Assembly: GCF_058153355.1 (NCBI RefSeq) | Contig: NZ_CM177019.1 | Length of the DNA: 64,000 bases | Strand: one strand, 5' to 3' | Part shown: in pieces, positions 8,494-64,000 of the stretch | Layout: every line of letters begins with the position of its first letter | How positions within the stretch are numbered: the stretch's first letter is position 1 | Position numbers and translations under genes: made by a program | Notes under the pieces: model-generated | The model's input: the letters and a program-made list of their open reading frames with translations, nothing else | What the model was told of the DNA's origin: nothing | Database searches by the model: none

Positions 8494-8576
8494 AGAGTGA
8501 CCGCCTGTAATTGGCGTGTTTTTGCATAAATGGAACAGGGTTTTGTAGTGAAAACATATTGCTAAGGAGGATTTAT

Positions 8577-9422: not shown

Positions 9423-9446
9423 TGCTTTTATTTGACGGGGGAGTAT

Positions 9447-10355: not shown

Positions 10356-10510
10356 TGTTAACTTATTGTCATGGCTACAATTCGTTGGTTTTCCTGTTGA
10401 GATGATAATATATATGAGAAAAACAGGCAATGAACCAGTGAGAGAATATCAGAAGATACGGTCAACATCGGTTAATTACTTTTTCCTGTAGCGATACCAG
10501 GGAGGTCATC

Positions 10511-12712: not shown

Positions 12713-12721
12713 GGACTGAAC

Positions 12722-15211: not shown

Positions 15212-15216
15212 TTGAT

Positions 15217-15627: not shown

Positions 15628-15789
15628 CCATTGTGCAGTTTTTTATGAAATCGATGCTGTGTTATTAAAATAATAATGCGACTAGGTTGAATTTGTTTAT
15701 TATTAATTTAAATGTTTTATGATTTTAAGTTAGACATGAATAACTGACTGGAAAATTATTTTTGAGGGATATCGTACAGGCAGGCAGGG

Positions 15790-17070: not shown

Positions 17071-17075
17071 CCCTG

Positions 17076-19492: not shown

Positions 19493-19505
19493 AAAGGAGG
19501 TAGTA

Positions 19506-19778
19506 ATGGAGTTTAAAAATAATCTAGAAGATTATACGGAAGATGAATTTATCGAACTTCTAAATAATTTTTTTGAACCACCTGAGGAATTGCATGGCGA
19601 TAAGTTGTCGAAGTTTATTGATGATCTTGTAAGTCATTTTATTAGAATCACTCAGCACCCAGATGGTAGTGATTTGATATTCTATCCATCTGAAGATAGA
19701 GAAGATAGTCCCCAAGGGATTGTTGATGAGTTAAAACGATGGCGAGCATCGCAGGGGCTAGGATGCTTTAAAATATAA
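19506..19778 (+). CDS. colicin DNase-type immunity protein (Im9/Im7-like)
   Basis: 90-aa ORF 14 nt after the DNase stop with GGAGG RBS; MEFKNNLEDYTEDEFIELL...HPDGSDLIFYP...DSPQGIV...RWRASQG aligns with the Im9 family (DYTE.EF, HP.GSDLI.YP, DSP.GIV). Confidence 0.85.
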   Translation: MEFKNNLEDYTEDEFIELLNNFFEPPEELHGDKLSKFIDDLVSHFIRITQHPDGSDLIFYPSEDREDSPQGIVDELKRWRASQGLGCFKI

Positions 19779-19864
19779 TGAAAATAAATACTCATCATAT
19801 TTTATTAAAATGATTGGTGTTTTTGTTATTAACCTTAAACCACTTCCTGAGAAGGTGGTACAGG

Positions 19865-20295
19865 GAAAGATCACCAGAAGTACACTTTTTGTACTAAATA
19901 ATTCGCATTTTATGTTCAATAATTGAGATATTCCTCATTACCTGAGGCTGTTTTTTATTGCTTATACATGATCAAATACTCCTTACATAATTAAGGAGAA
20001 CAAAATGGAACTTAAAAAATTGATGGAACATATTTCTGTTATTCCTGATTACAGACAAGCCTGGAAAGTGGAACATAAATTGTCGGATATTCTACTTTTG
20101 ACTATTTGCTCCGTCATTTCTGGTACAGAAGGCTGGCAAGATATAGAGAATTTTGGGGAAACACATCTCGATTTTTTGAAGCGACATGGTGATTTTTGAA
20201 ATGGTATTCCTGTTCACATACCATTGCCAGAGTTGTATCCTGTATCAGCCCTGCAAAATTTCATGAGTGCTTTATTAAAAGGAAACCAGGGGCGG
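19865..20295 (+). mobile_element. H-repeat 5' fragment (includes truncated 64-codon transposase ORF 20005-20199)
   Basis: Near-identical to 15790-16210 of the full H-rpt; the ORF ends prematurely (GDF then stop); joined through a short internal H-rpt piece (GNQGRL) to effector-derived sequence. Confidence 0.75.
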
Positions 20296-21465
20296 CTTAA
20301 TATCACCGGAACCGGCTGGCTGCCACAAAAGGATGTTGAAGAGGCCGGACAGTATGATTTACTGAAGCTGGGTTTTCAACCGCTGGAGGAGAACAGCAGC
20401 GGTGACATGACGTACAGCCCGTACGAAGGATGGGTGCCGGAAGCGTTTGACTCAATAAGCCGTGCCGCAGAACAGGGAGATGAGTGGCTGTATGAGCAGG
20501 TACCGCCCTTTTATCGTGAGCTGATGGCGGGTATGGATCAGGACGGTGATGGAAAAGTGACGGAGGAAGAGATCAGACAGGCGCTGACCGTGCGTGAACC
20601 ACTGGTGAGAAATGTGGTGAATCGTCTGACAGTCAGACACCACAGCGAGTGGTACGGCGGTCGCTCGACGGGACGCTGGGAAGGGTTTTATAAAGATCTG
20701 GACACCGAGGAAGTGGCATACTGTGAAAAGTGGCAGCTGGATCTGGAGTGGATGAGCGGGGTGTCTCCGTTTAATAGTGATGATGCTGTGTGGCATTTTC
20801 ATCCGGTTGTGTTTTTGAATGCTATTAATAATAGCAATTACCCAAAAACTCCTGTGAATAATGAACTTATTCCATTGGAATTTTTACGATTTTATAACGG
20901 AGATACCATTGATGATGCAGACTATGAAAATGCTGCAAGGACACTACAATGCGAAGTGGCTGCAATTAAAGCTGTTGCAAAAACTGAAACTGGTAGTTCC
21001 GGTAGCTATTTTAAATTTGAACAAGAAGATGATTACGTCCCCTCAATTCTTTTTGAAAGACATCATTTCCATCGATATACGAATGGTGTGTATGATTCTC
21101 AACCTGATATTTCCAACAGCCGTTCTGGCGGTTATGGAACACGATCGGAGCAATATCAAAAATTACTTCGTGCATATGTTTTAGATAAGCAAGCTGCGCT
21201 TAAATCGGCATCGTGGGGTAAATTTCAGATATTGGCTTCAAATTACCAAGCTACCGGGTACTCTTCGCCCGAAGAGTTTATAATATCGATTTCAGAGTTA
21301 GAGAAAAACCATCTGGCGGCATTCATTAACTTCATAAAATCTAATCCTGTATTATTGCGTGCTATTAGAGATAAAGATTGGCTTAACTTTGCTCTATGTT
21401 ATAATGGGCAAAGTCAGCGAGGATATGATGACAGAATAAGGGCTAATTATGAGCAATATAGATAG
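20224..21465 (+). CDS. orphan, N-terminally truncated effector module: conserved EF-hand middle region plus alternative C-terminal N-acetylmuramidase (DUF3380-like) domain
   Basis: Residues from NITGTGWLPQKDVEEAG through HPVVFL are about 95% identical at nucleotide level to 13865-14395 of the 829-aa effector, then diverge into a C-terminus with ILFERHHFHRYT, SWGKFQILASNY and LCYNGQSQ motifs typical of the DUF3380 muramidase family; the first 20 codons derive from H-rpt sequence in another frame. Confidence 0.7.
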   Translation: MPELYPVSALQNFMSALLKGNQGRLNITGTGWLPQKDVEEAGQYDLLKLGFQPLEENSSGDMTYSPYEGWVPEAFDSISRAAEQGDEWLYEQVPPFYRELMAGMDQDGDGKVTEEEIRQALTVREPLVRNVVNRLTVRHHSEWYGGRSTGRWEGFYKDLDTEEVAYCEKWQLDLEWMSGVSPFNSDDAVWHFHPVVFLNAINNSNYPKTPVNNELIPLEFLRFYNGDTIDDADYENAARTLQCEVAAIKAVAKTETGSSGSYFKFEQEDDYVPSILFERHHFHRYTNGVYDSQPDISNSRSGGYGTRSEQYQKLLRAYVLDKQAALKSASWGKFQILASNYQATGYSSPEEFIISISELEKNHLAAFINFIKSNPVLLRAIRDKDWLNFALCYNGQSQRGYDDRIRANYEQYR

Positions 21466-30187: not shown

Positions 30188-30871
30188 ATGAGCATCAAAA
30201 AAGCACTATTAAGCATGTTGATAACATTGCCACTCTGGGTATTGACTGGGTGTGACTATATTGAGAAAGCGAATCTGATCGACGATCTTGCCAAACAGCA
30301 AGAATTGCAAAAAAGTAAAATAGAGATTCTTGAAAAACAACAAGAACAATATAAAAGAAAAATAGAAATTATTGAAAATCAACAAATTAATATTGCAAAC
30401 ACCACTAAAGTGCTGGCGGGTGTAGTAAAGACGGTCAAAGACAAACAGAACGAATTTGTCTTCACCGAATTTAACCCAGCACAAACAAAATACTTCATTT
30501 TAAACAATGGCTCGGTTGGTTTGGCAGGCCGGGTGCTGTCTATTGATGCAGTTGAAAATGGTAGCGTTATTCGTATTTCGCTGGTCAACCTATTAAGCGT
30601 TCCCGTATCAAATATTGGCTTTCAAGCCACATGGGGCAGTGAAAGACCCACCGATACCAAAGCGCTGTCGAAGTGGCAACAATTACTTTTCAACACCACC
30701 ATGAACTCCACCCTGCAATTAATGCCTGGTCAATGGCAAGACATTAACCTGACATTAAAAGGCGTTTCACCTAATAACCTGAAGTATCTGAAATTGTCCA
30801 TCAATATGGCCAATCTCCAGTTCGACACTGTTCAACCTGCTGAAACTCAGCAGCGGAAAAACAAAAAATAA
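30188..30871 (+). CDS. putative lipoprotein
   Basis: 227 aa; signal peptide with lipobox LTGC (Cys22); coiled-coil-like Q/E/K-rich region; immediately upstream of the adhesin gene. Confidence 0.7.
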   Translation: MSIKKALLSMLITLPLWVLTGCDYIEKANLIDDLAKQQELQKSKIEILEKQQEQYKRKIEIIENQQINIANTTKVLAGVVKTVKDKQNEFVFTEFNPAQTKYFILNNGSVGLAGRVLSIDAVENGSVIRISLVNLLSVPVSNIGFQATWGSERPTDTKALSKWQQLLFNTTMNSTLQLMPGQWQDINLTLKGVSPNNLKYLKLSINMANLQFDTVQPAETQQRKNKK

Positions 30872-47932: not shown

Positions 47933-48892
47933 TTGTTTCCATTTCGTCGTAACGTTCTTGCATTTGCCGCTCTGTTGGCGCTCTCCTCCCCCGTACTTGC
48001 TGGCAAACTTGCCATCGTCATTGATGATTTTGGGTATCGCCCGCACAACGAAAACCAGGTGCTGGCGATGCCCTCCGCTATCTCCGTCGCTGTATTACCC
48101 GATTCACCGCACGCCAGAGAGATGGCGACCAAAGCGCATAACAGCGGTCACGAAGTGTTGATTCATCTGCCAATGGCACCGTTGAGTAAACAGCCGCTGG
48201 AGAAAAATACGCTGCGCCCGGAGATGAGCAGCGACGAAATTGAGCGCATTATTCGTAGTGCGGTCAATAACGTGCCCTATGCCGTGGGGATCAACAACCA
48301 CATGGGTAGCAAGATGACCTCTAACCTGTTTGGTATGCAGAAAGTGATGCAGGCACTGGCGCGTTACAATCTTTACTTCCTCGACAGCGTAACCATCGGT
48401 AATACCCAGGCGATGCGCGCCGCGCAAGGCACTGGCGTGAAGGTTATTAAACGGAAGGTGTTCCTCGACGATTCACAGAACGAAGCAGACATCCGTGTGC
48501 AGTTTAATCGTGCAATTGACCTGGCGCGTCGCAACGGTTCGACCATTGCCATTGGGCATCCTCACCCTTCAACGGTACGCGTGTTGCAACAGATGGTTTA
48601 TAACCTGCCGCCAGACATTACACTGGTGAAAGCCAGCAGCTTGCTGAATGAACCGCAGGTTGATACTTCTACACCGCCGAAAAACGCTGTGCCTGATGCA
48701 CCGCATAATCCGTTCCGTGGCGTGAAACTGTGTAAACCGAAGAAACCGCTGGAACCGGTTTATGCTAATCGCTTCTTTGAAGTATTAAGCGAAAGCATCA
48801 GCCAGAGCACGCTGATCGTTTACTTCCAGCATCAGTGGCAAGGCTGGGGCAAGCAGCCCGAAGCGGCAAAACTTAACGCTAGCGCAAATTAA
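47933..48892 (+). CDS. yibQ: divergent polysaccharide deacetylase family protein YibQ
   Basis: 319-aa ORF with signal peptide, directly after envC. Confidence 0.85.
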
Positions 48893-49913
48893 AGGCGCTA
48901 CGCGTAATGCGATGGTGCGACCGCGTTTTGTCGCGCCATTGCCATAAGCGGAAAGACCACAGTAACGCCTGATAACCCACCTTTATGCTGCGTACATTGG
49001 AAATCAGGCGCTTATACATACCGGAAGTAAATATCTCAGCAATCATCCGTTGGCGGGTAATAATATCTGGCTCTTTACGTACCGCATGGCAAACACGTAA
49101 TGCTTCGTAAGTTATTTGTTGATGAAATTCCGGGTGAATCACTATTCTGTCTGCGTAATCGCGATTTAACTTTTCCAACAGTCGGGTAATCTTAATATAG
49201 TGGCGTTGATAATTAAGGTTTTTATTTCCCTGTCTATTCAATCGGCTCACTGACGTATTATGCAAATAATATTTATATAACGATTGCTCGGTATATCGCA
49301 CGCGTTGCGCGTTAAACATAAATTCTGTTGTCCAGACAATATCTTGATGATGTAATCCGGCAATAAATTTAATGTTATTTTTAACAATGACATCACGACG
49401 ATAAATGCCCATCCAGACAACATGAGTCCAACGACGGGAAGAAAGCCCCATTCGCAGCCAGTCCGGGCCGGTTAATACGCCGGTTGAGCGAAGGCGATCG
49501 CTGGGGATGGATTGCCAGGTTTCTCCCGTTTCACGAAAACACCAGTCAGCATTGCACTGCGCCACGTCAAGGTCATCATCTAACGCCATGGTCATCAGCG
49601 TTTCGTACATGGTGGGATAGACCTCATCGTCAGCATCGACAAAAGCGACATATTTGCCCGTCGCTGCCTCGATCCCACGATTACGCGCTACCGATGCGCC
49701 AGAATTCGCCTGATGCAACAAACGAACATGCGGATAGTTTTCCGCGTAATGCTTTGCTATTTCAACAGAATTATCCGTTGAACCATCGTTAATAATAATG
49801 ATTTCCAGAGCAGTCCAGGTTTGCGTAATTAAAGATTCCATACAAGTGCGGAAATCATCGCCCGCATTATATAACGGGATAATAACACTGAGTTTATTGG
49901 TGCTGTTCATCAT
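48879..49913 (-). CDS. waaH: family 2 glycosyltransferase WaaH (YibD)
   Basis: 344-aa ORF with GT2 signature [10 protein letters not shown]...INDGSTD...DADD. Confidence 0.88.
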
Positions 49914-50173
49914 AAATACCGACGACCTCTGAAGTTATCCTGATGTTTTACAGGCTTTGTATTAAGAAACCATTAAGCCTGTGAGATATTATTTTTACAG
50001 GTGAGAGAGTCACTTCAGGGTAGAGAGATAATGAGAGCAGCTATATAAGAGATCAGCACAATTACGAACTCTTTATTACACTGACAGGATTTTACATATT
50101 TAACAGATTATCCTCAGATAAAAGGGCTGGTATTTTGGATTTTCAGATTGTAGACCAAGTGCGCTTTGTTTAT

Positions 50174-51377
<1,204 letters not shown>

Positions 51378-51602
51378 AAATCGCGGAAGGGATGAAACAA
51401 CAGCGCCTGACGGCGCTGTGTCTGGCATGCCTGCAATCCGGGAGACTGGACCAGGAAAAAACTTGCAGGCCGTAACAGTATCTACCAAATTGTGCAGATT
51501 TAATATTTTGCAGGAACCGCGTAGGCATGATAAGCGTAGCGCATCAGGCAATTTTGTGTTTGCCATCAGCTTCAAGGGCTGGTATTCCAGCCCTTGTTCG
51601 TG

Positions 51603-52628
51603 TTAATCCCAGCTCAGAATAACTTTCCCGGACTGGCCCGAACGCATGGCATCAAAGCCTTTCTGGAAATCATCGATAGAGAAACGATGGGTAATGATCG
51701 GCGAGAGATCGAGGCCAGACTGAATCAGCGCCGCCATCTTGTACCAGGTTTCAAACATCTCACGACCGTAAATACCTTTAATGAACAAGCCTTTAAAGAT
51801 CACTTTGGTCCAGTCGATAGACATATCAGACGGCGGAATACCCAACATCGCAATGCGACCGCCGTGGTTCATGGTGTCGAGCATGGTACGAAACGCTGGC
51901 GGCGCACCGGACATTTCCAGACCGACATCAAAGCCTTCGGTCATGCCTAACTCCGCCATCACGTCATTGAGATTTTCTTTGGCGACGTTAACCGCACGGG
52001 TGATACCCATTTTACGCGCCAGCTCAAGGCGGTATTCATTAACATCCGTGATCACCACGTTGCGTGCACCGACGTGTTTCGCCACCGCCGCAGCCATAAT
52101 ACCTATCGGACCTGCACCAGAAACCAGCACATCTTCGCCCACCAGATCAAACGACAGCGCGGTATGCACGGCGTTACCGAAGGGATCAAAAATGGAAGCC
52201 AGGTCGTCGGAGATATTGTCGGGGATTTTGAAGGCGTTGAACGCCGGAATCACCAGATATTCTGCGAAGCAGCCCGGACGGTAAACACCGACACCGATCG
52301 TGTTGCGGCACAAATGGGTACGGCCACCACGACAGTTGCGGCAATGACCACAAGTGATATGGCCTTCGCCAGAAACGCGATCGCCGATCTTGAAGCCTTT
52401 CACTTCCTGACCGATGCCAACCACCTCACCGACATATTCATGGCCTACAACCATCGGTACTGGGATGGTTTTTTGCGACCACTCATCCCAGTTATAGATG
52501 TGAACGTCAGTCCCGCAGATGGCTGTTTTACGGATTTTAATCAGCAGATCGTTATGTCCGAGTTCCGGTTCAGGAACGTCGGTCATCCAGATGCCCTCTT
52601 CCGCTTTCAGTTTGGATAACGCTTTCAT
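51603..52628 (-). CDS. tdh: L-threonine 3-dehydrogenase
   Basis: 341-aa zinc-dependent MDR-family dehydrogenase. Confidence 0.95.
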
Positions 52629-52641
52629 CTCACATCCTCAC

Positions 52642-53838
52642 TCAGGCGATTACGCCCAGTTGTTTACCAATACGCGTGAACGCTTCTACCGCACGCGTAA
52701 TTTGCTCAGGGGTATGCGCCGCAGACATCTGGGTACGAATACGCGCCTGACCTTTCGGAACGACCGGATAGAAGAAACCGGTGACGTAAATGCCCTCTTT
52801 TTGCAGTTCACGTGCAAATTTTTGCGCCACTACAGCATCGCCAAGCATGACCGGAATAATGGCGTGATCGGCACCCGCCAGAGTAAAGCCCGCCGCCGAC
52901 ATTTGCTCACGGAACTGACGCGCGTTCGCCCACAGACGGTCACGAAGCTCGCTACCCGCTTCAACCATCTCCAGCACTTTGATGGAAGCGGCAACAATGG
53001 CCGGTGCCAACGAGTTGGAGAACAGGTACGGACGAGAACGCTGGCGCAGCCACTCAACCACTTCTTTGCGCGCCGCGGTATAACCACCAGAAGCCCCGCC
53101 CAGCGCTTTACCGAGCGTGCCGGTGATAATATCGACCCGGCCCATCACATCGCAGTATTCATGGGAACCACGACCATTTTCACCGACAAAACCAACGGCG
53201 TGGGAGTCGTCTACCATCACCAGGGCATCGTATTTATCTGCCAGATCGCAAACACCTTTCAGGTTGGCAATCACGCCGTCCATCGAGAACACACCATCGG
53301 TGGCAATCAGCACATGACGCGCACCGGCTTCACGCGCTTCTTTCAGACGAGCTTCAAGCTCCTGCATATCGTTGTTGGCATAGCGATAGCGTTTAGCTTT
53401 GCACAGACGCACACCATCAATAATAGACGCGTGGTTCAGTGCGTCGGAGATAATGGCGTCTTCCGCGCCCAACAGCGTTTCGAACAGGCCACCGTTAGCA
53501 TCAAAGCAGGAAGAGTAGAGAATCGCATCTTCCATCCCCAGGAAGGCCGCCAGTTTTTGTTCAAGCTCTTTATGGCTGTCCTGAGTGCCGCAAATAAAAC
53601 GCACCGAAGCCATGCCGAAACCGTGAGAATCCATTCCCGCCTTTGCCGCCGCAATCAGATCCGGATGATTCGCCAGTCCGAGATAGTTATTGGCACAAAA
53701 GTTAATGACGTGGCTTCCATCAGCCACCGTGATGTCTGCTTGCTGTGCAGACGTAATAATGCGCTCTTCTTTAAACAACCCTTCCGCCCTTGCGGTTTCC
53801 AGATCGTTGGTTAACTGCTGATAAAATTCTCCACGCAT
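52642..53838 (-). CDS. kbl: 2-amino-3-ketobutyrate CoA ligase (glycine C-acetyltransferase)
   Basis: 398-aa PLP-dependent aminotransferase class II ORF, upstream of tdh in the kbl-tdh operon. Confidence 0.95.
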
Positions 53839-54051
53839 TGCGATTCTCCAGACAGGGCAAATTCCAGCACATATTACCCAAACTTATAGGTTGCGACGAG
53901 ATGACGCGTTAACACTTCTGCAAAATTCAGGATAAATAACGTCCATCAATCTCACTTTTGGCGAATGGCTGAAGCGAACGCCGTGTAGTGATATGATGGA
54001 AGCATTCGTGTCTGAGATTGTCTCTGACTCCATAATTCGAAGGTTACAGTT

Positions 54052-54984
54052 ATGATCATCGTTACCGGCGGCGCGGGCTTTATCGGCAGCAACATCGTTA
54101 AGGCCCTGAATGATAAAGGCATCACCGATATTCTGGTGGTGGACAACCTGAAAGACGGCACCAAGTTTGTGAACCTGGTGGATCTGAATATCGCGGACTA
54201 TATGGATAAGGAAGACTTCCTGATCCAGATTATGGCTGGCGAAGAGTTCGGCGATGTCGAAGCGATTTTCCACGAAGGCGCGTGCTCTTCCACCACCGAG
54301 TGGGATGGCAAGTATATGATGGATAACAACTATCAATACTCCAAAGAGCTGCTGCACTACTGTCTGGAACGCGAAATCCCGTTCCTGTATGCCTCTTCCG
54401 CGGCCACTTACGGCGGTCGCACCTCCGACTTTATTGAATCCCGCGAGTACGAAAAACCGTTGAACGTCTACGGTTACTCAAAATTCCTGTTTGATGAATA
54501 TGTTCGCCAAATCCTGCCAGAAGCGAACTCGCAGATTGTTGGCTTCCGCTATTTCAACGTTTATGGACCGCGTGAAGGCCATAAAGGCAGCATGGCGAGC
54601 GTCGCTTTCCATCTCAACACCCAGCTCAACAATGGTGAATCGCCGAAACTGTTCGAAGGTAGCGAGAACTTTAAACGCGACTTCGTCTACGTGGGTGATG
54701 TGGCAGATGTGAATCTGTGGTTCCTGGAAAATGGCGTATCCGGCATCTTCAACCTCGGTACCGGTCGTGCAGAATCCTTCCAGGCAGTAGCGGATGCTAC
54801 GCTTGCTTATCACAAGAAAGGCCAGATCGAATACATTCCGTTCCCGGATAAACTTAAAGGCCGCTATCAGGCGTTCACTCAGGCGGATCTGACGAATCTG
54901 CGCGCGGCGGGTTACGATAAACCGTTCAAAACCGTTGCCGAAGGCGTAACGGAATATATGGCCTGGCTGAATCGCGACGCATAA
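54052..54984 (+). CDS. hldD: ADP-L-glycero-D-manno-heptose 6-epimerase
   Basis: 310-aa ORF starting [16 protein letters not shown] (Rossmann). Confidence 0.95.
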
Positions 54985-54993
54985 GAGCTCTGC

Positions 54994-56040
54994 ATGAAAA
55001 TACTGGTGATCGGCCCGTCTTGGGTTGGCGACATGATGATGTCGCAAAGTCTCTATCGCACGCTCCAGGCGCGCTATCCCCAGGCGATAATCGACGTGAT
55101 GGCACCGGCATGGTGCCGTCCGTTATTATCGCGGATGCCGGAAGTTAACGAAGCTATCCCTATGCCTCTCGGTCACGGAGCGCTGGAAATCGGCGAACGC
55201 CGCAAACTGGGTCATAGTCTGCGTGAAAAGCGCTACGACCGCGCCTACGTCTTACCCAACTCCTTCAAGTCCGCATTAGTGCCTTTCTTCGCGGGTATTC
55301 CTCATCGCACCGGCTGGCGCGGCGAGATGCGCTACGGTTTACTTAACGATGTACGCGTGCTCGATAAAGAAGCCTGGCCGCTAATGGTGGAACGCTATGT
55401 CGCGCTAGCCTATGACAAAGGCATTATGCGTACCGCACAAGATCTGCCGCAGCCATTGTTATGGCCGCAGTTGCAGGTGAGCGAAGGTGAAAAATCATAT
55501 ACCTGTAATCAATTTTCGCTCTCATCAGAACGTCCGATGATTGGCTTTTGCCCCGGAGCGGAGTTTGGTCCGGCAAAACGCTGGCCACACTACCACTATG
55601 CGGAGCTGGCAAAGCAGCTGATTGATGAAGGTTATCAGGTGGTTCTGTTTGGCTCGGCGAAAGATCATGAAGCGGGCAATGAGATTCTTGCCGCTTTGAA
55701 TACCGAGCAGCAGGCATGGTGCCGGAACCTGGCGGGGGAAACACAGCTTGATCAAGCGGTTATCCTGATTGCAGCCTGTAAAGCCATTGTCACTAACGAT
55801 TCTGGCCTGATGCACGTTGCGGCGGCGCTCAATCGTCCTTTGGTTGCCCTGTATGGTCCGAGTAGCCCGGACTTCACACCGCCACTATCCCATAAAGCGC
55901 GCGTGATCCGCCTGATTACCGGCTATCACAAAGTGCGTAAAGGTGATGCTGCGGAGGGTTATCACCAGAGCTTGATCGACATTACTCCCCAGCGCGTACT
56001 GGAAGAACTCAACGCGCTATTGTTACAAGAGGAAGCCTGA
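54994..56040 (+). CDS. waaF: ADP-heptose:LPS heptosyltransferase II
   Basis: 348-aa GT9-family ORF. Confidence 0.93.
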   Translation: MKILVIGPSWVGDMMMSQSLYRTLQARYPQAIIDVMAPAWCRPLLSRMPEVNEAIPMPLGHGALEIGERRKLGHSLREKRYDRAYVLPNSFKSALVPFFAGIPHRTGWRGEMRYGLLNDVRVLDKEAWPLMVERYVALAYDKGIMRTAQDLPQPLLWPQLQVSEGEKSYTCNQFSLSSERPMIGFCPGAEFGPAKRWPHYHYAELAKQLIDEGYQVVLFGSAKDHEAGNEILAALNTEQQAWCRNLAGETQLDQAVILIAACKAIVTNDSGLMHVAAALNRPLVALYGPSSPDFTPPLSHKARVIRLITGYHKVRKGDAAEGYHQSLIDITPQRVLEELNALLLQEEA

Positions 56041-56043
56041 CGG

Positions 56044-57024
56044 ATGCGGGTTTTGATCGTTAAAACATCGTCGATGGGCGATGTTCTCCATACGTTGCCC
56101 GCACTCACTGATGCCCAGCAGGCAATCCCGGGGATTAAGTTTGACTGGGTGGTGGAAGAAGGGTTCGCACAAATTCCTTCCTGGCACGCCGCCGTTGAGC
56201 GAGTTATTCCTGTGGCAATACGTCGCTGGCGTAAAGCCTGGTTCTCGGCCCCCATAAAAGCTGAACGGAAAGCGTTTCGTGAAGCGCTACAAGCAGAGAA
56301 CTATGACGCAATTATCGACGCTCAGGGGCTGGTAAAAAGCGCGGCGCTGGTGACGCGTCTGGCGCATGGCGTAAAGCATGGAATGGACTGGCAAACCGCT
56401 CGCGAACCTTTAGCCAGCCTGTTTTACAATCGTAAACATCATATTGCAAAACAGCAGCACGCCGTAGAACGCACCCGCGAACTGTTTGCCAAAAGTCTGG
56501 GCTATAGCAAACCGCAGACTCAGGGCGATTATGCTATTGCGCAGCATTTCCTGACGAACCTGCCAACAGATGCTGGCGAATATGCCGTATTTCTTCATGC
56601 AACAACCCGTGATGATAAACACTGGCCGGAAGCACACTGGCGAGAGTTGATTGGTTTACTGGCAGATTCAGGGATTCGCATTAAACTTCCGTGGGGCGCG
56701 CCGCATGAAGAAGAGCGGGCAAAAAGACTGGCGGAAGGATTTGCTTATGTTGAAGTATTGCCGAAGATGAGTCTGGAAGGCGTTGCCCGCGTGCTGGCCG
56801 GGGCTAAATTTGTGGTGTCGGTGGATACGGGGTTAAGCCATTTAACGGCGGCACTGGATAGACCCAATATCACGGTTTATGGACCTACTGATCCGGGATT
56901 AATTGGTGGGTATGGGAAGAATCAGATGGTTTGTAGGGCTCCGGGGAATGAGTTGTCTCAATTGACAGCAAATGCTGTTAAGCAATTCATTGAAGAAAAC
57001 GCTGAAAAAGCTGCCATGATTTAA
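56044..57024 (+). CDS. waaC: ADP-heptose:LPS heptosyltransferase I
   Basis: 326-aa GT9-family ORF. Confidence 0.93.
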   Translation: MRVLIVKTSSMGDVLHTLPALTDAQQAIPGIKFDWVVEEGFAQIPSWHAAVERVIPVAIRRWRKAWFSAPIKAERKAFREALQAENYDAIIDAQGLVKSAALVTRLAHGVKHGMDWQTAREPLASLFYNRKHHIAKQQHAVERTRELFAKSLGYSKPQTQGDYAIAQHFLTNLPTDAGEYAVFLHATTRDDKHWPEAHWRELIGLLADSGIRIKLPWGAPHEEERAKRLAEGFAYVEVLPKMSLEGVARVLAGAKFVVSVDTGLSHLTAALDRPNITVYGPTDPGLIGGYGKNQMVCRAPGNELSQLTANAVKQFIEENAEKAAMI

Positions 57025-57056
57025 ATTACAACTCTTTAATAGATAATTTTGAAATA

Positions 57057-57084
57057 AAATCAGCTTCCTTGCTGATTTTATTTC
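57057..57084. terminator. putative bidirectional rho-independent terminator between convergent waaC and waaL
   Basis: Hairpin aaaatcagc-ttcctt-gctgatttt flanked by A-run on one side and T-run on the other. Confidence 0.6.
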
Positions 57085-57093
57085 ACATATTCA

Positions 57094-58347
57094 TTACTTA
57101 TCTAATAAACATTGGTCCGATTGTGCTTTAAAATAAGCACAAAGCAATATTATGGTGACAAACACAGCAGTCGGAACCGGTTTAGAAAAGAGTATTACAT
57201 CACTTAGGCCTACTACCAGTAGTGAAAAAAGCAAGATTAAAATATAAGGTTCTTTAGCAGTTCTTAAGGCATATATGAATATTGCTGAAAAGGCTAAAAT
57301 TGTTAATACTACTCCAGGAATACCACGCGTTGATAACGTATCTATGAGATCGTTATGCAAATGAGAATCTACAAAGGGTAAAGCGCCACTTAATCTAGGC
57401 TCTTTCTCTTCTAGTTCATGTATTTTTTCCGCGCGTTTTTCCAGTGATTGTCCTATTGGAGAATATGTTTTTAAACCAACTTCATACATTGCCAGACGGG
57501 CACCGACTGAAGTTCTGGTGTTATCATGCGAATAATTAACTAAATCCCTATTTAAGTCATTCATTCTCGTAAGTAATGTATCTTTAAAAGAAAATACACC
57601 TGCTAATAATGCAATCGCAATAAAACAATATAACTTATAATTAATTCGCTTATTAATATAACTATCCATTACGATTAATAGTAACGCAAAGAATGGAAAC
57701 ACTAATATGGCTGCACGCGTTTCAGTTACTATAACAGCACATAAGCTAAGCATGAAGTTAATTGTATATAATGTTGTTTTATGTCTAAAGTCGGATTTTA
57801 AAATGAGAATTGATGCCAGTAAAGAAGGGAAAAGGATGATGTAGCCTGCTGTTGTAGCGTGGGAAGCTGATAATGCAACACGGTCGACGTTTAAATAGAA
57901 ATGTTGCCACATGGCATGCGCAAAAAAAAGTAACTGCGTTGCCAGGGATGCGAACAGAATTAGTTTCCCAAATTTTATTTTGGTTCTCATCTCATCTTTA
58001 GCAAAAAGAACTAAGAAAATAAAAGCACTACACAAGGCAATTTTTCCAGTTTCCATTGGGCCACGATATGCATTGGTATAAACCGAGCCTGAAACTTTAT
58101 AATGTGAATACCAGATGATATTAACGATACCCAAAAGACATAATGAGATGAAAATTAACAACGTAGGATTATTAGTTATTGTTTTTTTTGGTGTCGCTAG
58201 AAAATATAATGCAGATATAATTCCAGCTGCATGAAGAAACTTTGTTGCAACATCATCCCACAAAGACAAAGTCATTAAAGACAACATACATAATATGAGA
58301 GTTAAAGACTTGACACCAGAGTTAATTTCATTCCAACAAAACGACAT
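57094..58347 (-). CDS. waaL: O-antigen ligase WaaL
   Basis: 417-aa polytopic membrane protein, convergent with waaC; exact start codon uncertain. Confidence 0.85.
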   Translation of the reverse strand: MSFCWNEINSGVKSLTLILCMLSLMTLSLWDDVATKFLHAAGIISALYFLATPKKTITNNPTLLIFISLCLLGIVNIIWYSHYKVSGSVYTNAYRGPMETGKIALCSAFIFLVLFAKDEMRTKIKFGKLILFASLATQLLFFAHAMWQHFYLNVDRVALSASHATTAGYIILFPSLLASILILKSDFRHKTTLYTINFMLSLCAVIVTETRAAILVFPFFALLLIVMDSYINKRINYKLYCFIAIALLAGVFSFKDTLLTRMNDLNRDLVNYSHDNTRTSVGARLAMYEVGLKTYSPIGQSLEKRAEKIHELEEKEPRLSGALPFVDSHLHNDLIDTLSTRGIPGVVLTILAFSAIFIYALRTAKEPYILILLFSLLVVGLSDVILFSKPVPTAVFVTIILLCAYFKAQSDQCLLDK

Positions 58348-58392
58348 ATAATTTCAACCTATGCTACGAGGATGGGTTATTTAATGGAAGAC

Positions 58393-59376
58393 CTAACGTT
58401 TATTCTTTTTTCTATTTACCAGTCTTACCATCCTCCAGAGAATATAGTTTTTTGATGCTAATATTTTTGCTCGCCTCTTATCTCTCTTGCCAAGAAGATT
58501 ACAATCTTTCAATTCTTTTTCATTGCTTTCAACTAATTGATTTAATAATTCAAAATCGCCATTAAGTAGAACATTCCATAAATAACGAGTTTTATGATAA
58601 GTTCTATTTTTACTCAATAATGTATGAATTTCTTCTTTCCGGTTACCTTTGTATAACTGCATCACAGAAGAGTAGATTCTTTCGTGCGCAAATGACTCAT
58701 GTCGATAATGAGTGATGGTTCTACATGAGTTCATTAAGGAATTTTCTCTATAGTTATGCTTATACATATAATATGGAACCGCATACATATCGCATGTAAT
58801 TAGCAGTCGATAGATAAAATCCAGATCTTCTCCTAGTCTTAAATCTTCATCAAAAAAAAGATTATTATCTTCCAGGAGTTGTTTTCTTATAAACAAGCAC
58901 CCTATATGGAATCTGACCTTTTTATAAAAAAAGTCGAAAAGTAAAGACCCTTCATTAAACTCTGTATTTATAGGTGAGTAAGTAACACCATTTTTTATAT
59001 GATGGCCATAAAGCCCACAATAAATCGCATCCCCTCCCGTCTCATGTTGTCTGGAATACATCTTCAGCAGATAGTTAGGATCTATCTCATCATCATCATC
59101 CATAAAACATATAAACTGTCCTTGCGCCTTGCGGATACCTGTATTCCTGGCAGACGAAACACCGCCATTTTCTTTATTGATAATAATTAATTGCGAGTGG
59201 GTTAACCCATACTCTCTCAAAACGTTTGATGTGTTATCTTTAGAACCATCATTAACAATAACAATTTCAAAATTTGGGTAAGTTTGTTTTTCTAATTTCG
59301 TTAGAGTTTCAGTAATGTAATCAGATGAATTATACGTCGGTATTATTATGGATACTAAAGGGTAATCATTGCTCAT
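58393..59376 (-). CDS. waaV: family 2 glycosyltransferase of the outer core (WaaV-like)
   Basis: 327-aa ORF with GT2 motif VSIIIPTYNSS...VNDGSKD...DDDD; position after waaL as in R1-type core loci. Confidence 0.65.
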   Translation of the reverse strand: MSNDYPLVSIIIPTYNSSDYITETLTKLEKQTYPNFEIVIVNDGSKDNTSNVLREYGLTHSQLIIINKENGGVSSARNTGIRKAQGQFICFMDDDDEIDPNYLLKMYSRQHETGGDAIYCGLYGHHIKNGVTYSPINTEFNEGSLLFDFFYKKVRFHIGCLFIRKQLLEDNNLFFDEDLRLGEDLDFIYRLLITCDMYAVPYYMYKHNYRENSLMNSCRTITHYRHESFAHERIYSSVMQLYKGNRKEEIHTLLSKNRTYHKTRYLWNVLLNGDFELLNQLVESNEKELKDCNLLGKRDKRRAKILASKNYILWRMVRLVNRKKNKR

Positions 59377-59454
59377 CGTGTTCTCTTGCCTGAACTAATA
59401 AAATATGATAGTACTCATCCTTAATTATTATTGTAACTCAGACATCCATGATTT

Positions 59455-60483
59455 TTATTGCCCAAATAGTTTTCTTTTATACTTATTTAATTTGAATTTA
59501 ATGAAGTAAATGAAAGCGTTAAACGTATCACCATTTTTCTTTGCATGTTGGTATTTCACTTGATACTGCTTTTCATTCGTGGCTGGAATAAACGCCACAT
59601 CATTCCAGCAAGAAGCCTGATAAGCCTCATTAAAATACTTCTGGCAGGGATAATTTGTCCAGTCGTTCCAGGGCTTCGTTACGCCAACATAATGAATCAG
59701 CTTAGTATCATCGGTAATGGTCTTTTTATAATCTTCATTGCTTTTATTTTTTAACTCATAGTCAATGCCATAAAAGCAATCATAATCGCCGCTAATAAAA
59801 ATACAATGACCAAAGAACAGAATATTTAAAATATCCTGATCAAGGCATTTATATTTCGTGTGCTGCGGGTCACTTGCCAGCATAGCAATGGCTTTGTTCA
59901 TAAAATCATTTTTCGACCATGCTTCAAGCTGCAGATATACTACACCAGCGTTGAAATAATTCCCTGGAAGTCCCTCTATAGCCAGACGCTTCGCTGGTTT
60001 TTCCTGCATAAAAGGCACATCTTTAATAACAGCTGCAAACTTATCGCCGTCAAAATTAATATCAAGCAATCCAGCTAATGAGCCTTTACAGATGACATCA
60101 GCATCGATATATAACAGATTTTCAATAGTTTCACTCAGATACTGGAACGCAACTAAACGGAAGAATGTTGCATAAGACCACTGTTTCAGGCTGGGGAAGA
60201 TATCAATAAAGGCACTGGAGACTTTATAAATTCTTACTTCAACGTTAGCATTTTTGCTGGTAAAAGCGTTAACACGTTGTAGATAATCTTCATCAATGTA
60301 GTCGGTAAAGAGATGAAACTTAACCGCAAGGTCCGGGTTATGCATAACAACTGATTGCATAGATACTGCCGCACCAAATAAAAAATTACGGTCAATACCG
60401 TAAGCGATATTTAACACACGATCGGTGTTAGCAATTTCCCCAGAGACAGCGACTTCAGTAATACTCTCAGCTAATAAATCCAT
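59455..60483 (-). CDS. waaW: GT8-family LPS glycosyltransferase (WaaW-like)
   Basis: 342-aa ORF paralogous to the two GT8 ORFs at 61211-62206 and 62223-63239 (shared NIAYGID.NFL and DxD-containing regions). Confidence 0.65.
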   Translation of the reverse strand: MDLLAESITEVAVSGEIANTDRVLNIAYGIDRNFLFGAAVSMQSVVMHNPDLAVKFHLFTDYIDEDYLQRVNAFTSKNANVEVRIYKVSSAFIDIFPSLKQWSYATFFRLVAFQYLSETIENLLYIDADVICKGSLAGLLDINFDGDKFAAVIKDVPFMQEKPAKRLAIEGLPGNYFNAGVVYLQLEAWSKNDFMNKAIAMLASDPQHTKYKCLDQDILNILFFGHCIFISGDYDCFYGIDYELKNKSNEDYKKTITDDTKLIHYVGVTKPWNDWTNYPCQKYFNEAYQASCWNDVAFIPATNEKQYQVKYQHAKKNGDTFNAFIYFIKFKLNKYKRKLFGQ

Positions 60484-60508
60484 GTTGGTTCCGTTTTGAC
60501 TGTGTGGT

Positions 60509-61201
60509 TTACGCTTTGCCTTTTAATTTTTTAATAAATTTGCGTAGTTTGGTTCTGTAGATTACTGAATAGTAGCCATAATCTTTTATTTCGTTGGCAA
60601 TACCCAGGTGACGTTCCATGGCCAGACGATCACGGGCTTTCCGCTCTGCCGTACAGCTTTTACCGGATAGGTCAATTATCCTGACACCATCTTTACTAAC
60701 GATAAAGTTACCCCGGTGTGGGTCGCCCGATAGCATATTTAAGGCATGCAATTTTTCCATTGAAGCCTTAATTTCTGCTTTAACATTTTCTGGAATAATC
60801 GGCATATCATTGAGCTCTACGCCCTCGACATACTCGATAAGCATGATAAAAACACTGGCATAGTTGAAAATTTTACGCTCAGCCAGAAAATAAAAATCAT
60901 TAGGAAAAGTAAGACCTGCACTTCTGACACGATCGGTTTCAACGATCAAATTCTGATAGTAGTCACCTTTTACAAAAGATTTTAAAAAACGTTCATTCCT
61001 TTTCGTTTTCGGGGCAAAGACTTTAAAAACATAGCGACCATATTTCGTATCAATCAACGATACTTTGGTATCATCAATATTACGTAATACTTTTACTGTT
61101 TTAAAATTATAGGCCAGTATTTCATCAAAGATTTCTTTATATTTATTATCGTTATCTTTGTAATAAAATGAGAAGCCGCGATAGCGTATACTTGTAATCA
61201 T
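60509..61201 (-). CDS. waaY: LPS core heptose(II) kinase WaaY
   Basis: 230-aa kinase-like ORF. Confidence 0.85.
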   Translation of the reverse strand: MITSIRYRGFSFYYKDNDNKYKEIFDEILAYNFKTVKVLRNIDDTKVSLIDTKYGRYVFKVFAPKTKRNERFLKSFVKGDYYQNLIVETDRVRSAGLTFPNDFYFLAERKIFNYASVFIMLIEYVEGVELNDMPIIPENVKAEIKASMEKLHALNMLSGDPHRGNFIVSKDGVRIIDLSGKSCTAERKARDRLAMERHLGIANEIKDYGYYSVIYRTKLRKFIKKLKGKA

Positions 61202-61210
61202 AAGAGTAAT

Positions 61211-62206
61211 TTATTTCTTAAGCTTGTACTTAATTAATGAAGTTATACCTTTAATATACTCACCATGGGCAAACAGATGCTTATATTGTTTCTGCATTTC
61301 TGCAACAGTCCGCGCCTCTTTAAGAGGATATTTCTTCCAGGGAGATTGTTCACGCGCGATATTAAAGTATGATACAGACGGATATCCAGCCCAGCTATGC
61401 CATGGTTTAGTTATCCCTGTATAGTGAATCAATACTGTTTTATCGGTAATGGTTTGCTGATACTTTCGATGACTACGATCATGAAGTTCGTTTTTCAGGG
61501 TATAAATAGTATCAAAATCCTTCGCGAGGTAGATATTATTCATATTAAATGCGATATTCAACGCATCCTGATCTAAATATTTAAGAGAGCCATATTTAGT
61601 TTCCCCTCGTAAAAGCGTGAGTAAATACGGTGTCAAATTTGCTTCATGCCATTTTTTAAGATTGACATAGATAACGCCTGCATTGAAATAACGTCCATTC
61701 ATTTCGGGAATGTTAAGACGTTTTGCACATGCCGCCTGAGTACTATCATTGTCAGGAATAACCGCAGCAAACTCATCTTTAAATATAATTTTTGTGAGAG
61801 GTTTCAGACTTCCTTTACAAACGACATCGGCATCCAGATACAGCAGTGTGGAAATACTTTCACTCAGATATTCAAAGGACAATACCCTGAAGTATGTCGC
61901 GTACGACCAAAACTGTGACGTCGGCAGATCAGCAAAGTATTTTGGGTCAATTAAATATACAATAATTGAGGTATTAAATTGTTTTGCTGTTTCATTAAAT
62001 GACTTTAAATAATCATCATCCACATAATCAGTGAAAACATGAAAGACAAAATTAATATCTGAATTATTAATCAAAACGGAAGAAATTGAAACGCCAGCAC
62101 CATACAAAAAATTCTTATCGATACCGTAGGAAACATTTAGCTCTGGGACGTTTTCTTTTTTATTATCTGCTAAATACGAAAACCGTTCTTTTATAAATTC
62201 ATTCAT
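61211..62206 (-). CDS. waaT: GT8-family LPS glycosyltransferase (WaaT-like)
   Basis: 331-aa GT8 ORF; the specific name is inferred from the order O-T-Y-W-V-L. Confidence 0.65.
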   Translation of the reverse strand: MNEFIKERFSYLADNKKENVPELNVSYGIDKNFLYGAGVSISSVLINNSDINFVFHVFTDYVDDDYLKSFNETAKQFNTSIIVYLIDPKYFADLPTSQFWSYATYFRVLSFEYLSESISTLLYLDADVVCKGSLKPLTKIIFKDEFAAVIPDNDSTQAACAKRLNIPEMNGRYFNAGVIYVNLKKWHEANLTPYLLTLLRGETKYGSLKYLDQDALNIAFNMNNIYLAKDFDTIYTLKNELHDRSHRKYQQTITDKTVLIHYTGITKPWHSWAGYPSVSYFNIAREQSPWKKYPLKEARTVAEMQKQYKHLFAHGEYIKGITSLIKYKLKK

Positions 62207-62222
62207 TTAAATTTTCTCAATG

Positions 62223-63239
62223 TCATTTTATTATCTTTAAATAAAAATAATAAATATAATTCATTATCCCGTTAATTGGTTTATTTTGTTTAAAATTATG
62301 CTTAGCGCAATAACGAGCATAATTTGAGTTAATTGGCCGCATTAACGGTTCATTTTTCCATGGCGATGCTTCTTTGGCTTTGATAAATGGCTGCGCGCTT
62401 GGATAACCGGCCCAGTAATGCCAGGGTTTTGTCGGGCCGACATAATGAATTAATACGGTTTCATCATTAATTGGACAAATAAATGATTTTTTTAATTCAT
62501 AATTTAAACTAAATTGCGTATTGTATTTAGCATCAATGAATTTAACTTTCCCTAACAGGATAAGATTTAGTATATCTTGATCCATATAGGTTAAACGGGA
62601 AACTACGGCTTTATCAGCAAGCATCGACATCGCTTTAGCAGAAACGGACTCCTGCGCCCACGCAAGTGTATTAATTAACAGGACACCTGAATTAAAGTAA
62701 CCCTTTTCAAGTTCATTACACTGCAGACTTTGAGCCCGTAACGACCACCAGTTAGCATCGCGTTCAGTAACAACAGCAGCAACGTTATTGGCAAGATCCA
62801 TTGTTATCAGCGGTTTTAAGGTTCCCTGACAGGCGATATCAGCATCCAGGTACAGGATCTTATCTTGTTGATCAATAAAGTAATCTGCAATTACAAAACG
62901 GAAATACATGGCAATAGACCAATTTTTGGTCGTCGGTAATACCTTAAGCCGTTCACAATTTACCAGATGGATCTGGATACAGGTATGATAGCTTTTCGCC
63001 AATTGGGATAAACGCTGGATATCGGCGTCAGGGATATCATCAATAAAAACGTGGAAGACAAAACTCACGTCGTTGTTATGTAACAAAACTGACGTGATTG
63101 AAACACCACAACCAAAAAGAAAGTTCTGATCAATGCCATAAGCAACATGGAATGATGATGCCACTGACGCCTCTGGCCTTTCATCGAAGATGATTGTCTT
63201 ATTGATCATCTCTTGTGGATTAAAATAGTGGGCACTCAT
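62223..63239 (-). CDS. waaO: GT8-family LPS alpha-1,3-glucosyltransferase (WaaO/WaaI-like)
   Basis: 338-aa GT8 ORF adjacent to waaP. Confidence 0.7.
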   Translation of the reverse strand: MSAHYFNPQEMINKTIIFDERPEASVASSFHVAYGIDQNFLFGCGVSITSVLLHNNDVSFVFHVFIDDIPDADIQRLSQLAKSYHTCIQIHLVNCERLKVLPTTKNWSIAMYFRFVIADYFIDQQDKILYLDADIACQGTLKPLITMDLANNVAAVVTERDANWWSLRAQSLQCNELEKGYFNSGVLLINTLAWAQESVSAKAMSMLADKAVVSRLTYMDQDILNLILLGKVKFIDAKYNTQFSLNYELKKSFICPINDETVLIHYVGPTKPWHYWAGYPSAQPFIKAKEASPWKNEPLMRPINSNYARYCAKHNFKQNKPINGIMNYIYYFYLKIIK

Positions 63240-63254
63240 ATTTCTCTCCGGAAA

Positions 63255-64000
63255 TTACAACGATTTTCTAATCGTTCTTTCCCTGATTTTTGTGGCTTTT
63301 GCTTCTGCTTGCGACAGCAGCCCTTGTTCCTGCTTGAGAATGTCTTTAAGCGGGGCAGCAAAATACACCTTCATGAACCGCCAGATATCCCGCTGAGTCA
63401 GGCCAATATTCATCGAAGAAAAATAAAGCCCAATAAGATCTTTATCGCGCCAACGACGTGGAACGCGCGTGCGAAGCTGCGCCCGGTGCAGGTCAATTAC
63501 TGAAATTTTTAACTCCTCTTCCTTACCGGAAAAAGGCAAGTGCAGCAGGAAATGACAGATATAACAGTCACGGTGGTTAATGCCCGCAGCATGCATATCG
63601 CGCACCATCATCGCGACACGCTTAATAATCATACGCTTTACGCGAACATCTGGAGGGTTAGTCGCCCAGTCAGCACAGTAATCTTCCAGACTGATGGTTG
63701 GTGTCAGATCTTCGGTTATAATAAACGAGGTTCTGGTCAGCGGATTAATGCCTTTTTCGCCGAATGCCACCCCATACATAGTATCAACGCCGACATCCCG
63801 CAGTCGATGAATCGCATTCCATTCGCGGTCTGCACCTAATACTGGCATCCGCAATGAGAGTAAATTTTTGATTATCTCTTTCAGGGTCGTGCCGCGATGC
63901 CATTTGAGAAAATAGCTTTTGCCCGCCATTTCAAAGCGCAGAGTGCGGCGAGTTTCCAGTTCACGAAATACCTCACCCTGCAAGGTTTTAACTTCCTCAA
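63255..64000 (-). CDS. waaP: LPS core heptose(I) kinase WaaP (C-terminal part; start lies beyond window end)
   Basis: Open frame continues to the window edge; the translated part matches WaaP minus about 23 N-terminal residues. Confidence 0.9.

Follow-up and report, generated by a model that had tools for sequence, protein, structure and literature searches.

A waa locus of Escherichia coli assigned to the R1 lipopolysaccharide core type by transferase identity, ligase allele and core-type primers

The window, by which we mean the whole 64,000-nucleotide stretch of DNA analyzed here, ends inside an operon for the lipopolysaccharide (LPS) core, and its gene order raises the question of which core type the strain carries. 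Between positions 57094 and 64000, the ORF listing gives seven minus-strand ORFs arranged back to back with gaps of 9–78 bp. Together with Pfam and NCBIfam, it bears out the order that had been proposed from the letters alone: waaL, GT2, GT8, waaY, GT8, GT8, waaP. Five glycosyltransferases had been counted in that proposal, but the window encodes four (WaaV, WaaW, WaaT, and WaaO), while the fifth, WaaG, lies beyond its end. The features of the region are:

56044..57024, plus strand: waaC, heptosyltransferase I; ends the rfaD-waaF-waaC operon and is convergent with waaL; 99.4% amino acid identity to RfaC of EC42405 and EcN
57050..57085, no strand assigned: hairpin with a 15-bp stem lying between waaC and waaL, whose stop codons face each other (terminator scan)
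57094..58347, minus strand: waaL, 417 aa, R1-type O-antigen ligase; Pfam Wzy_C 2e-17
58393..59376, minus strand: waaV, 327 aa, GT2 beta-1,3-glucosyltransferase, R1-defining; Pfam Glycos_transf_2 4e-39
59455..60483, minus strand: waaW, 342 aa, GT8; Pfam Glyco_transf_8 plus 8C 1e-71
60509..61201, minus strand: waaY, 230 aa, heptose II kinase; Pfam WaaY 1e-129; NCBIfam RfaY 401 bits (cut-off 248)
61211..62206, minus strand: waaT, 331 aa, GT8 UDP-galactose:(glucosyl)LPS alpha-1,2-galactosyltransferase; Pfam Glyco_transf_8 plus 8C 4e-72
62223..63239, minus strand: waaO, 338 aa, GT8 UDP-glucose:(glucosyl)LPS alpha-1,3-glucosyltransferase; Pfam Glyco_transf_8 plus 8C 3e-80; NCBIfam PRK15171 611 bits (cut-off 461)
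63255..64000, minus strand: waaP, heptose I kinase, 3′ 248 codons with the 5′ end beyond the window; Pfam Kdo/WaaP kinase 3e-75; NCBIfam RfaP 450 bits (cut-off 170)

Exact copies in large protein clusters and near-identity to annotated chromosomes indicate that the seven ORFs are real genes. For the five proteins checked (WaaL, WaaV, WaaW, WaaT, and WaaO), the exact sequences occur in clusters of 1,900–8,200 members, whose source names are generic (“glycosyltransferase family 2 protein,” never “WaaV”), and a 9-kb stretch shows 98.6–99.4% nucleotide identity to annotated E. coli chromosomes. All six complete waa genes of the window, waaL to waaO, are full length and intact. The G+C content of this block is 31–39%, compared with about 52% in the flanks, which is usual for the outer-core cassette. 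The hairpin at 57050..57085 is terminator-like and might function as such; terminator-like sites occur in this region at chance level. A promoter scan of the region also remained at chance level (30 sites, 28 expected), and we claim no internal promoter.

Gene order is not sufficient to distinguish R1 from R4, because the R4 locus shows the same order with waaX replacing waaV. The two types are instead separated by the identity of the transferase next to waaL (GT2 or GT25) and by the WaaL allele. In NCBIfam, RfaY, RfaP, and the third GT8 (waaO) score above curated cut-offs, and WaaW and WaaT match the WaaO/WaaI model below its cut-off, but no model names WaaV, WaaW, WaaT, or the R1 WaaL. This resource is therefore unable to type the locus, and the typing is based on reference loci and primers.

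The core-type PCR suggested as a check in the sequence-only reading was performed in silico with five published primer pairs (Trofimova et al. 2025; PMC13293308), using a script that assigned the correct type to each of five reference loci (R1, R4, R3, R2, and K-12). The R1 pair (waaV/waaW) is the only one that matches the window, with 0 mismatches at both the R1-F site within waaV (58776–58794) and the R1R4-R site within waaW (59595–59614). None of the seven other core-type primers, including R4-F and those for R2, R3, and K-12, has a site in the window with up to 4 mismatches allowed, so that an R1 product alone is obtained. The amplicon measures 839 bp instead of the expected 842 bp due to a 3-bp indel between waaV and waaW, which the window has in common with EC42405 (also 839 bp).

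For the protein comparison, EC42405 (typed R1 in Table S1 of PMC13293308) and EcN_Sk (typed R1 by our in-silico PCR) served as R1 references, and E06, strain 167, O157:H7 Z1813, and MG1655 as references for R4, R2, R3, and K-12, respectively. The decisive question was whether the transferase adjoining waaL is closer to WaaX or WaaD than to WaaV. It is 100% identical to WaaV of EC42405 and 99.1% to that of EcN_Sk on the amino acid level, and neither blastp nor tblastn detects any similarity to WaaX (R4, GT25), WaaD (R3), WaaK (R2), or WaaU (K-12). WaaL matches R1 WaaL at 100% identity, a value obtained from EC42405 alone since waaL of EcN_Sk is frameshifted, compared with 35.5% to R4 WaaL and 30% to K-12 WaaL; the R2 and R3 ligases give no match by blastp/tblastn.

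The R1 backbone set waaO-waaT-waaY-waaW is present in the R1 order, and each of its proteins is 97.9–100% identical to the R1 counterpart. WaaW, the identity of which is also backed by a RefSeq product name in an annotated chromosome, shows 100% (EC42405) and 98.8% (EcN_Sk) identity to R1 and 92.4% to R4. WaaY is 99.6% identical to R1 and R4 WaaY and 52–54% to the K-12, R2, and R3 alleles. WaaT reaches 99.1% (EC42405) and 99.4% (EcN_Sk), a range that also covers R4, and stays at or below 45% against WaaJ from the other types. For WaaO, the values are 99.7% (EC42405), 97.9% (EcN_Sk), 96.2% (R4), and 51–55% (K-12/R2 WaaO and R3 WaaI). A tblastn search of the whole 64-kb window with WaaX, WaaD, WaaK, WaaU, WaaZ, WaaB, R2/R3 WaaL, and K-12 WaaS returned nothing, and the GT8-type WaaS of R2 gave a single 30% paralogue match, onto waaT.

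Judged by these comparisons, the locus represents, with a probability of about 96%, the distal portion of an E. coli waaQ operon (waaQ-G-P-O-T-Y-W-V-L) of the R1 core type. The proposal of R1 rather than K-12 is upheld by the sole R1 amplicon, by WaaV (99–100%), and by WaaL (100% to R1), and the accompanying statement that waaU/waaZ adjoin waaL in K-12 is correct for MG1655.

R1 is the commonest of the five known E. coli core types, with published shares of 35.4% for R1 and 12.3% for R4 among typed genomes (PMC13293308). In agreement with these shares, a waaC-waaL-waaV-waaW query is matched over 80% or more of its length in 1,832 of the 5,426 complete E. coli genomes (33.8%). In a second band of genomes, 42% of the query is covered and the GT25 gene is present (R4); the remainder match waaC only. 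An R1-type locus such as this one is already known and ordinary, and we report nothing new in it.

The R1 core and a UpaG-like adhesin had also been read together as a hint at an extraintestinal pathogenic (B2-like) strain. R1 does predominate among such pathogens: it accounts for 93% of NMEC, 70% of APEC, and 60% of UPEC (PMC13293308), and several B2 strains, EcN among them, match the locus at 98.6%. The combination, however, is uninformative. Among commensals (36.9%) and ETEC (66%), too, no core type is more frequent than R1, and the same study concludes that core type has no strong link to pathotype, EHEC excepted (PMC13293308). Moreover, the closest waa locus is that of the bovine phylogroup-E strain EC42405, and the housekeeping flanks are closest to phylogroup-A ST10 and a “cryptic” strain (98.6%). 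The adhesin itself is a positional orthologue of UpaG/EhaG, encoded at the site common to UpaG (B2) and EhaG (O157), to which it is 70% and 73% identical, respectively, and thus about equally related, and it is present in O157 and in strains from pig, dog, and duck. We therefore regard a pathotype signature as improbable, and the window offers no evidence of an ExPEC background.

Nor does the window give a phylogroup: the closest flanks, from phylogroup A ST10, the “cryptic” strain, and phylogroup E, are all at about 98–98.7%, and none of the complete genomes exceeds 98.7%. A search with 22 kb of flank yielded a mean identity of about 92% to E. coli. Another Escherichia species, which this value could suggest, was rejected based on a per-gene identity to E. 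coli of 94–99%; the low mean is explained by the variable adhesin. Cassette genes show 98.3–100% nucleotide identity to both B2 EcN and phylogroup-E EC42405, but for the adjacent housekeeping genes yibQ, waaH, tdh, kbl, rfaD, and waaF, identity to EcN, O157, and E06 is only about 96%. The outer-core cassette (waaL to waaO) may thus have been gained by recent homologous replacement rather than by vertical descent, in a poorly sampled lineage, but we offer this tentatively and consider it somewhat doubtful.

A hybrid or atypical core, in which a second determinant outside the window (e.g., R1 plus R4) or a lesion in waaG or waaQ makes the LPS other than plain R1, has precedents in R2/K-12 hybrids and in the R1/R4 hybrid ECOR46 (PMC13293308), and the window covers 64 kb of the genome and stops inside waaP. 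The missing part of the operon is supplied by a public contig (L010) that matches window positions 51456–64000 at 100% identity across 12,545 bp. Here, waaP (265 aa), waaG (374 aa), and waaQ (352 aa, 100% identical to EC42405) are all intact and are followed by waaA-coaD-mutM. Neither a second waaL nor waaX or another marker is found across the 64-kb window, and hybrids are rare exceptions among 4,549 genomes, about 1% of which are untypable (PMC13293308). Such a core is accordingly very unlikely.

Upstream of the operon, this contig carries the ops motif GGCGGTAG (ops/JUMPStart element) in the same context as in K-12, which implies antitermination dependent on RfaH, as elsewhere in E. coli. 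The plain R1 operon would be read from a promoter that, together with this element, is located upstream of waaQ and outside the window. For the enzymatic steps, we infer from genetic and chemical work published on R1 strains (PMC3526765; bioRxiv 10.1101/2022.09.06.506728), applied to proteins that are 98–100% identical, the following assembly. WaaG would place Glc I onto Hep II, followed by addition of Glc II (alpha-1,3) by WaaO, Gal I (alpha-1,2) by WaaT, and Gal II (alpha-1,2) by WaaW. WaaV would attach a beta-1,3-linked glucose onto Glc II as a side branch, and the inner-core heptoses Hep I and Hep II would receive phosphate from the kinases WaaP and WaaY. WaaL, the ligase specific to R1, is then expected to join O-antigen to the beta-glucose that WaaV adds; when the 327-aa waaV is frameshifted, O-antigen bands are lost (PMC12548472). 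Since its six complete waa genes are intact, we predict that the strain builds a full R1 core to which O-antigen can be attached, a structure deduced from the genes.

Core type sets the O-antigen attachment site and the binding target of core-directed antibodies and vaccines. It also decides adsorption of LPS-dependent phages, such as phiX174-like phages and several coliphages that need the sugars added by WaaV or WaaW. For the window, the outcome is a plain strain label, R1, the type of about a third of E. coli, and no new question is opened.

Among the known core loci, R4 (E06) has the same architecture, with waaL on the strand of the waaQ operon, an identical order of waaL, one glycosyltransferase, waaW, waaY, waaT, waaO, and waaP, a WaaW of 92% amino acid identity, and WaaY, WaaT, WaaO, and WaaP at 96–99.6%. 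Nevertheless, an R4-type locus, in which waaX (beta-galactosyltransferase) and an R4-specific ligase lie side by side, is ruled out for practical purposes by primer search, protein matrix, and tblastn alike: next to waaL, the window has a GT2 gene of 327 aa (waaV) where R4 has the GT25 gene waaX of 257 aa, blastp/tblastn reveal no similarity to WaaX, the R4-F primer is absent at 4 mismatches allowed, and WaaL is a mere 35.5% identical to that of R4.

The K-12, R2, and R3 loci share with the window the site between rfaD-waaF-waaC and waaA-coaD as well as waaQ, waaG, waaP, waaY, and a GT8 gene of the waaO/waaI type. In contrast to R1 and R4, their waaL is co-oriented with waaC; in MG1655, waaL is on the opposite strand, followed by waaU, waaZ, waaY, waaJ, waaO, waaB, waaS, and waaP. 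They differ further in carrying waaU/waaZ/waaJ/waaB/waaS (K-12), waaK/waaZ/waaJ/waaB (R2), or waaD/waaJ/waaI (R3), and their shared outer-core proteins are 30–55% identical to those of the window.

The prototype of the R1 core locus is F470, and the type also occurs in E. coli C, Nissle 1917, and Shigella sonnei. Compared with the R1 loci of EC42405 and EcN_Sk, genes, order, strands, R1 primer sites, and the low-G+C waaC-waaP cassette are all alike. WaaL, WaaV, and WaaW are 100% identical to those of EC42405, and the proteins compared with EcN_Sk range from 97.9% to 99.6%. Flanking housekeeping genes have diverged from EcN by about 4%, whereas the cassette has done so by 0–1.7%. Relative to the nominal 842-bp amplicon, the waaV-waaW spacer is 3 bp shorter here. 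The remaining differences from R1 are allelic only: across 9 kb, EC42405 diverges by 0.6% at the nucleotide level and B2 strains by 1.4%.

The outer-core locus at 57094-64000 consists of seven contiguous ORFs, all on the minus strand and separated by spacers of 9-78 bp (ORF listing). Domain assignments from Pfam and NCBIfam are included below.

The waa locus and its border
56044-57024, plus strand: waaC, convergent with waaL
57050-57085: hairpin with a 15-bp stem, between waaC and waaL
57094-58347, minus strand: waaL, 417 aa, O-antigen ligase (Wzy_C)
58393-59376, minus strand: waaV, 327 aa, GT2
59455-60483, minus strand: waaW, 342 aa, GT8
60509-61201, minus strand: waaY, 230 aa, WaaY kinase
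61211-62206, minus strand: waaT, 331 aa, GT8
62223-63239, minus strand: waaO, 338 aa, GT8
63255 to the window end, minus strand: waaP, partial, WaaP kinase

Gene order and coordinates of the sequence-only reading were thus correct by ORF listing, Pfam and NCBIfam, but of its five glycosyltransferases the window holds four, WaaG lying beyond the window end. In RefSeq, two R1 references, EC42405 (bovine, typed R1 in a published table) and the Nissle-derived EcN_Sk (typed R1 by in-silico PCR), are annotated with rfaD-rfaF-rfaC on one strand and, on the opposite strand, the ligase, GT2, GT8, rfaY, GT8, waaO, rfaP, waaG and rfaQ, followed by waaA-coaD. The G+C content of the cassette (the waaL to waaO block) is 31-39%, compared with ∼52% in the flanks; low G+C is a customary signature of outer-core clusters. 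At 53839-54051 there is no htrL/yibB, the gene that separates kbl from rfaD in K-12 and O157:H7; the R1, R4 and R2 reference loci lack it too.

The proposed alternative to an R1 core was that the gene next to waaL matches waaX (R4) or waaD (R3) better than waaV. We compared the proteins with reference loci of each core type, gathered by a "spread" search across genomes and by accession. The set comprised EC42405 and EcN_Sk (R1), E06 (R4), O157:H7 Z1813 (R3), strain 167 (R2) and MG1655 (K-12). WaaV is 100% identical to its EC42405 and 99.1% to its EcN_Sk counterpart, and no protein from the R4, R3, R2 or K-12 loci matches it at E≤1e-3. WaaL is 100% identical to EC42405 but only 35.5% to R4 and 30% to K-12. 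The remaining proteins are also close to EC42405 and EcN_Sk (WaaW, 100% and 98.8%; WaaT, 99.1% and 99.4%; WaaO, 99.7% and 97.9%; WaaY, 99.6% to both), yet WaaW also shares 92.4% with R4, and WaaT, WaaO and WaaY share 96-99.6% with R4 compared with 30-55% with their paralogues in K-12, R2 and R3. Gene order alone is insufficient to tell R1 from R4; the identity of the GT2 versus GT25 gene, the latter adjoining waaL in the R4 reference E06, and the ligase allele separate them. In the reverse test, every reference protein was searched by tblastn against all 64 kb: WaaX, WaaD, WaaK, WaaU, WaaZ and WaaB had no match in the window, nor had K-12 WaaS, R2 WaaL or R3 WaaL, while the GT8-type WaaS of the R2 strain produced no more than a paralogue-level match to waaT, at 30%. 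With WaaV matched and both WaaX and WaaD unmatched, the outcome that would speak against R1 was looked for and not found.

Core-type PCR, run in silico, gave the same answer. Trofimova et al. 2025 (PMC13293308) described nine oligonucleotides with which all five core types can be told apart, in silico as well as in vitro. R1-F (waaV, 58776-58794) and R1R4-R (waaW, 59595-59614) both match perfectly (0 mismatches) and point towards one another, predicting an 839 bp product compared with 842 bp nominal; the 3-bp shortfall is an intergenic indel also present in EC42405. None of the remaining seven primers has a site in the window, even at up to 4 mismatches, leaving the R1 pair as the sole match. 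With the same script, each reference locus (R1, R4, R3, R2 and K-12) yielded exactly its expected amplicon, which validates both the references and the method. Taken together, the gene order is confirmed and the R1 reading is supported with high confidence.

From the family literature, we infer that Glc I would be placed by WaaG, Glc II by WaaO, Gal I by WaaT and Gal II by WaaW; WaaV would then add the β-1,3-glucose branch on Glc II, a step that should need prior WaaW action. This β-glucose is the O-antigen attachment site (PMC3526765; bioRxiv 10.1101/2022.09.06.506728), and in a smooth strain whose core genes are of R1 type, frameshifts in the 327-aa waaV led to loss of O-antigen bands (PMC12548472). 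By NCBIfam assignment, WaaP and WaaY are the putative Hep I and Hep II kinases. RefSeq and NCBIfam label WaaO a "3-alpha-galactosyltransferase", which stems from a Salmonella-style model name; WaaO of R1 is described as a glucosyltransferase (bioRxiv 10.1101/2022.09.06.506728).

A public contig reached through the exact WaaT sequence, L010 (Logan assembly of SRR28786219), is 100% identical to 51456-64000 over 12,545 bp, with zero mismatches. It runs on past the window end, and its waaP (265 aa), waaG (374 aa) and waaQ (352 aa; 100% identity to EC42405) are all intact, so the strain has the full waaQGPOTYWVL operon. Upstream of waaQ, this contig contains the ops motif GGCGGTAG in a JUMPStart context identical to K-12. 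In the EcN_Sk reference locus, RefSeq annotates waaL (8095-9347 of that locus sequence) and rfaQ (16169-17226 of it) as frameshifted pseudogenes, perhaps a genuine variant, perhaps a fault of the assembly; here waaL is intact in the window and waaQ in the identical contig.

The sequence-only reading also linked the R1 core and a UpaG-like adhesin to extraintestinal pathogens. R1 does predominate in NMEC, APEC and UPEC, but commensals (36.9%) and ETEC likewise have R1 as their commonest type, and the published conclusion is that pathotype and core type are not strongly associated, EHEC with R3 excepted (PMC13293308); the link is hence uninformative. The nearest waa locus belongs to bovine EC42405 (phylogroup E, O153:H51, ST3042), and R1 is rare in phylogroup E (2.3%). 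The window reveals neither phylogroup nor pathotype.

Other elements in the window
6148-8493 and 10511-12712: two full vgrG copies, vgrG island
12722-15211: 829-aa ORF, vgrG island; a weak EF-hand match below threshold, nothing else
15929-16597: ISAs1-like transposase fragment, vgrG island
17043-18038: truncated vgrG, vgrG island, overlapping the next ORF
17978-19492: ORF with S-pyocin and colicin-DNase domains, vgrG island
20224-21465: EF-hand/N-acetylmuramidase ORF, vgrG island
30915-35630: adhesin, YadA-type trimeric autotransporter, 1571 aa, with ESPR signal, YadA head, stalk and anchor domains
35675-36971 and 50190-51485: two IS621-family (IS110-like) elements, same orientation

The adhesin gene sits in the yibL-lldP interval, the position that UpaG occupies in EcN and EhaG in O157:H7. 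Over the alignment union it shares 70% identity with UpaG, 73% with EhaG and 85% with the allele of EC42405. At the UpaG/EhaG locus this is a separate allele; given the shared site and the similar identities to both, it is a ubiquitous positional orthologue and no UPEC marker (cf. PMC7247748). Upstream, a 227-aa gene (30188-30871) holds the position of the RefSeq-annotated DUF3251 gene of EC42405 and O157; it has no Pfam family at E≤0.001, and its reading frame is intact in the window, whereas EC42405 and EcN_Sk both carry frameshifted copies.

The two IS621-family copies are 97.2% identical to each other and ∼96% to annotated IS621 copies, and either encodes a 326-aa DEDD transposase. Copy 1 lies between the adhesin gene and lldP, copy 2 between waaH and tdh, and housekeeping genes spanning ∼13 kb lie between the two. 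EC42405 lacks an element at either site, and the waaH-tdh site is also empty in EcN, E06, O157 and strain 167 (R2). The short-read contig L010 breaks off inside the right end of copy 2. The yibF-yibH interval (6148-21465) carries an orphan type VI secretion vgrG island where K-12 and EC42405 have rhs elements.

At the nucleotide level, the cassette genes (57094-63239) share 98.3-100% identity with EcN and EC42405, whereas six flanking genes (47933-56040) are only ∼96% identical to EcN, O157 and E06. The best matches of the housekeeping flanks, phylogroup-A ST10 strains and a "cryptic"-typed strain, reach just 98.5-98.7%, and for lldP-waaH none of the 5,426 complete E. coli genomes exceeds 98.7%; the strain's lineage is poorly represented among them. 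The contrast between cassette and flanks is consistent with the known recombinational movement of core cassettes between lineages and points to no new phenomenon.

The 9-kb stretch 55000-64000 has a partial match in 5,424 of these 5,426 genomes and a match to 80% or more of its length in 1,825, best in EC42405 (99.4%), then in many strains at 98.6%, EcN_Sk among them. waaC-waaL-waaV-waaW is covered to at least 80% in 1,832 (33.8%); a second band, ∼13% of sampled rows, matches 42% of this query and has the GT25 gene, and in other genomes the waaC part is matched alone. These counts reproduce the published frequencies of R1 (35.4%) and R4 (12.3%; PMC13293308). The locus is therefore already known: it represents the commonest known core type and is structurally nothing unusual.
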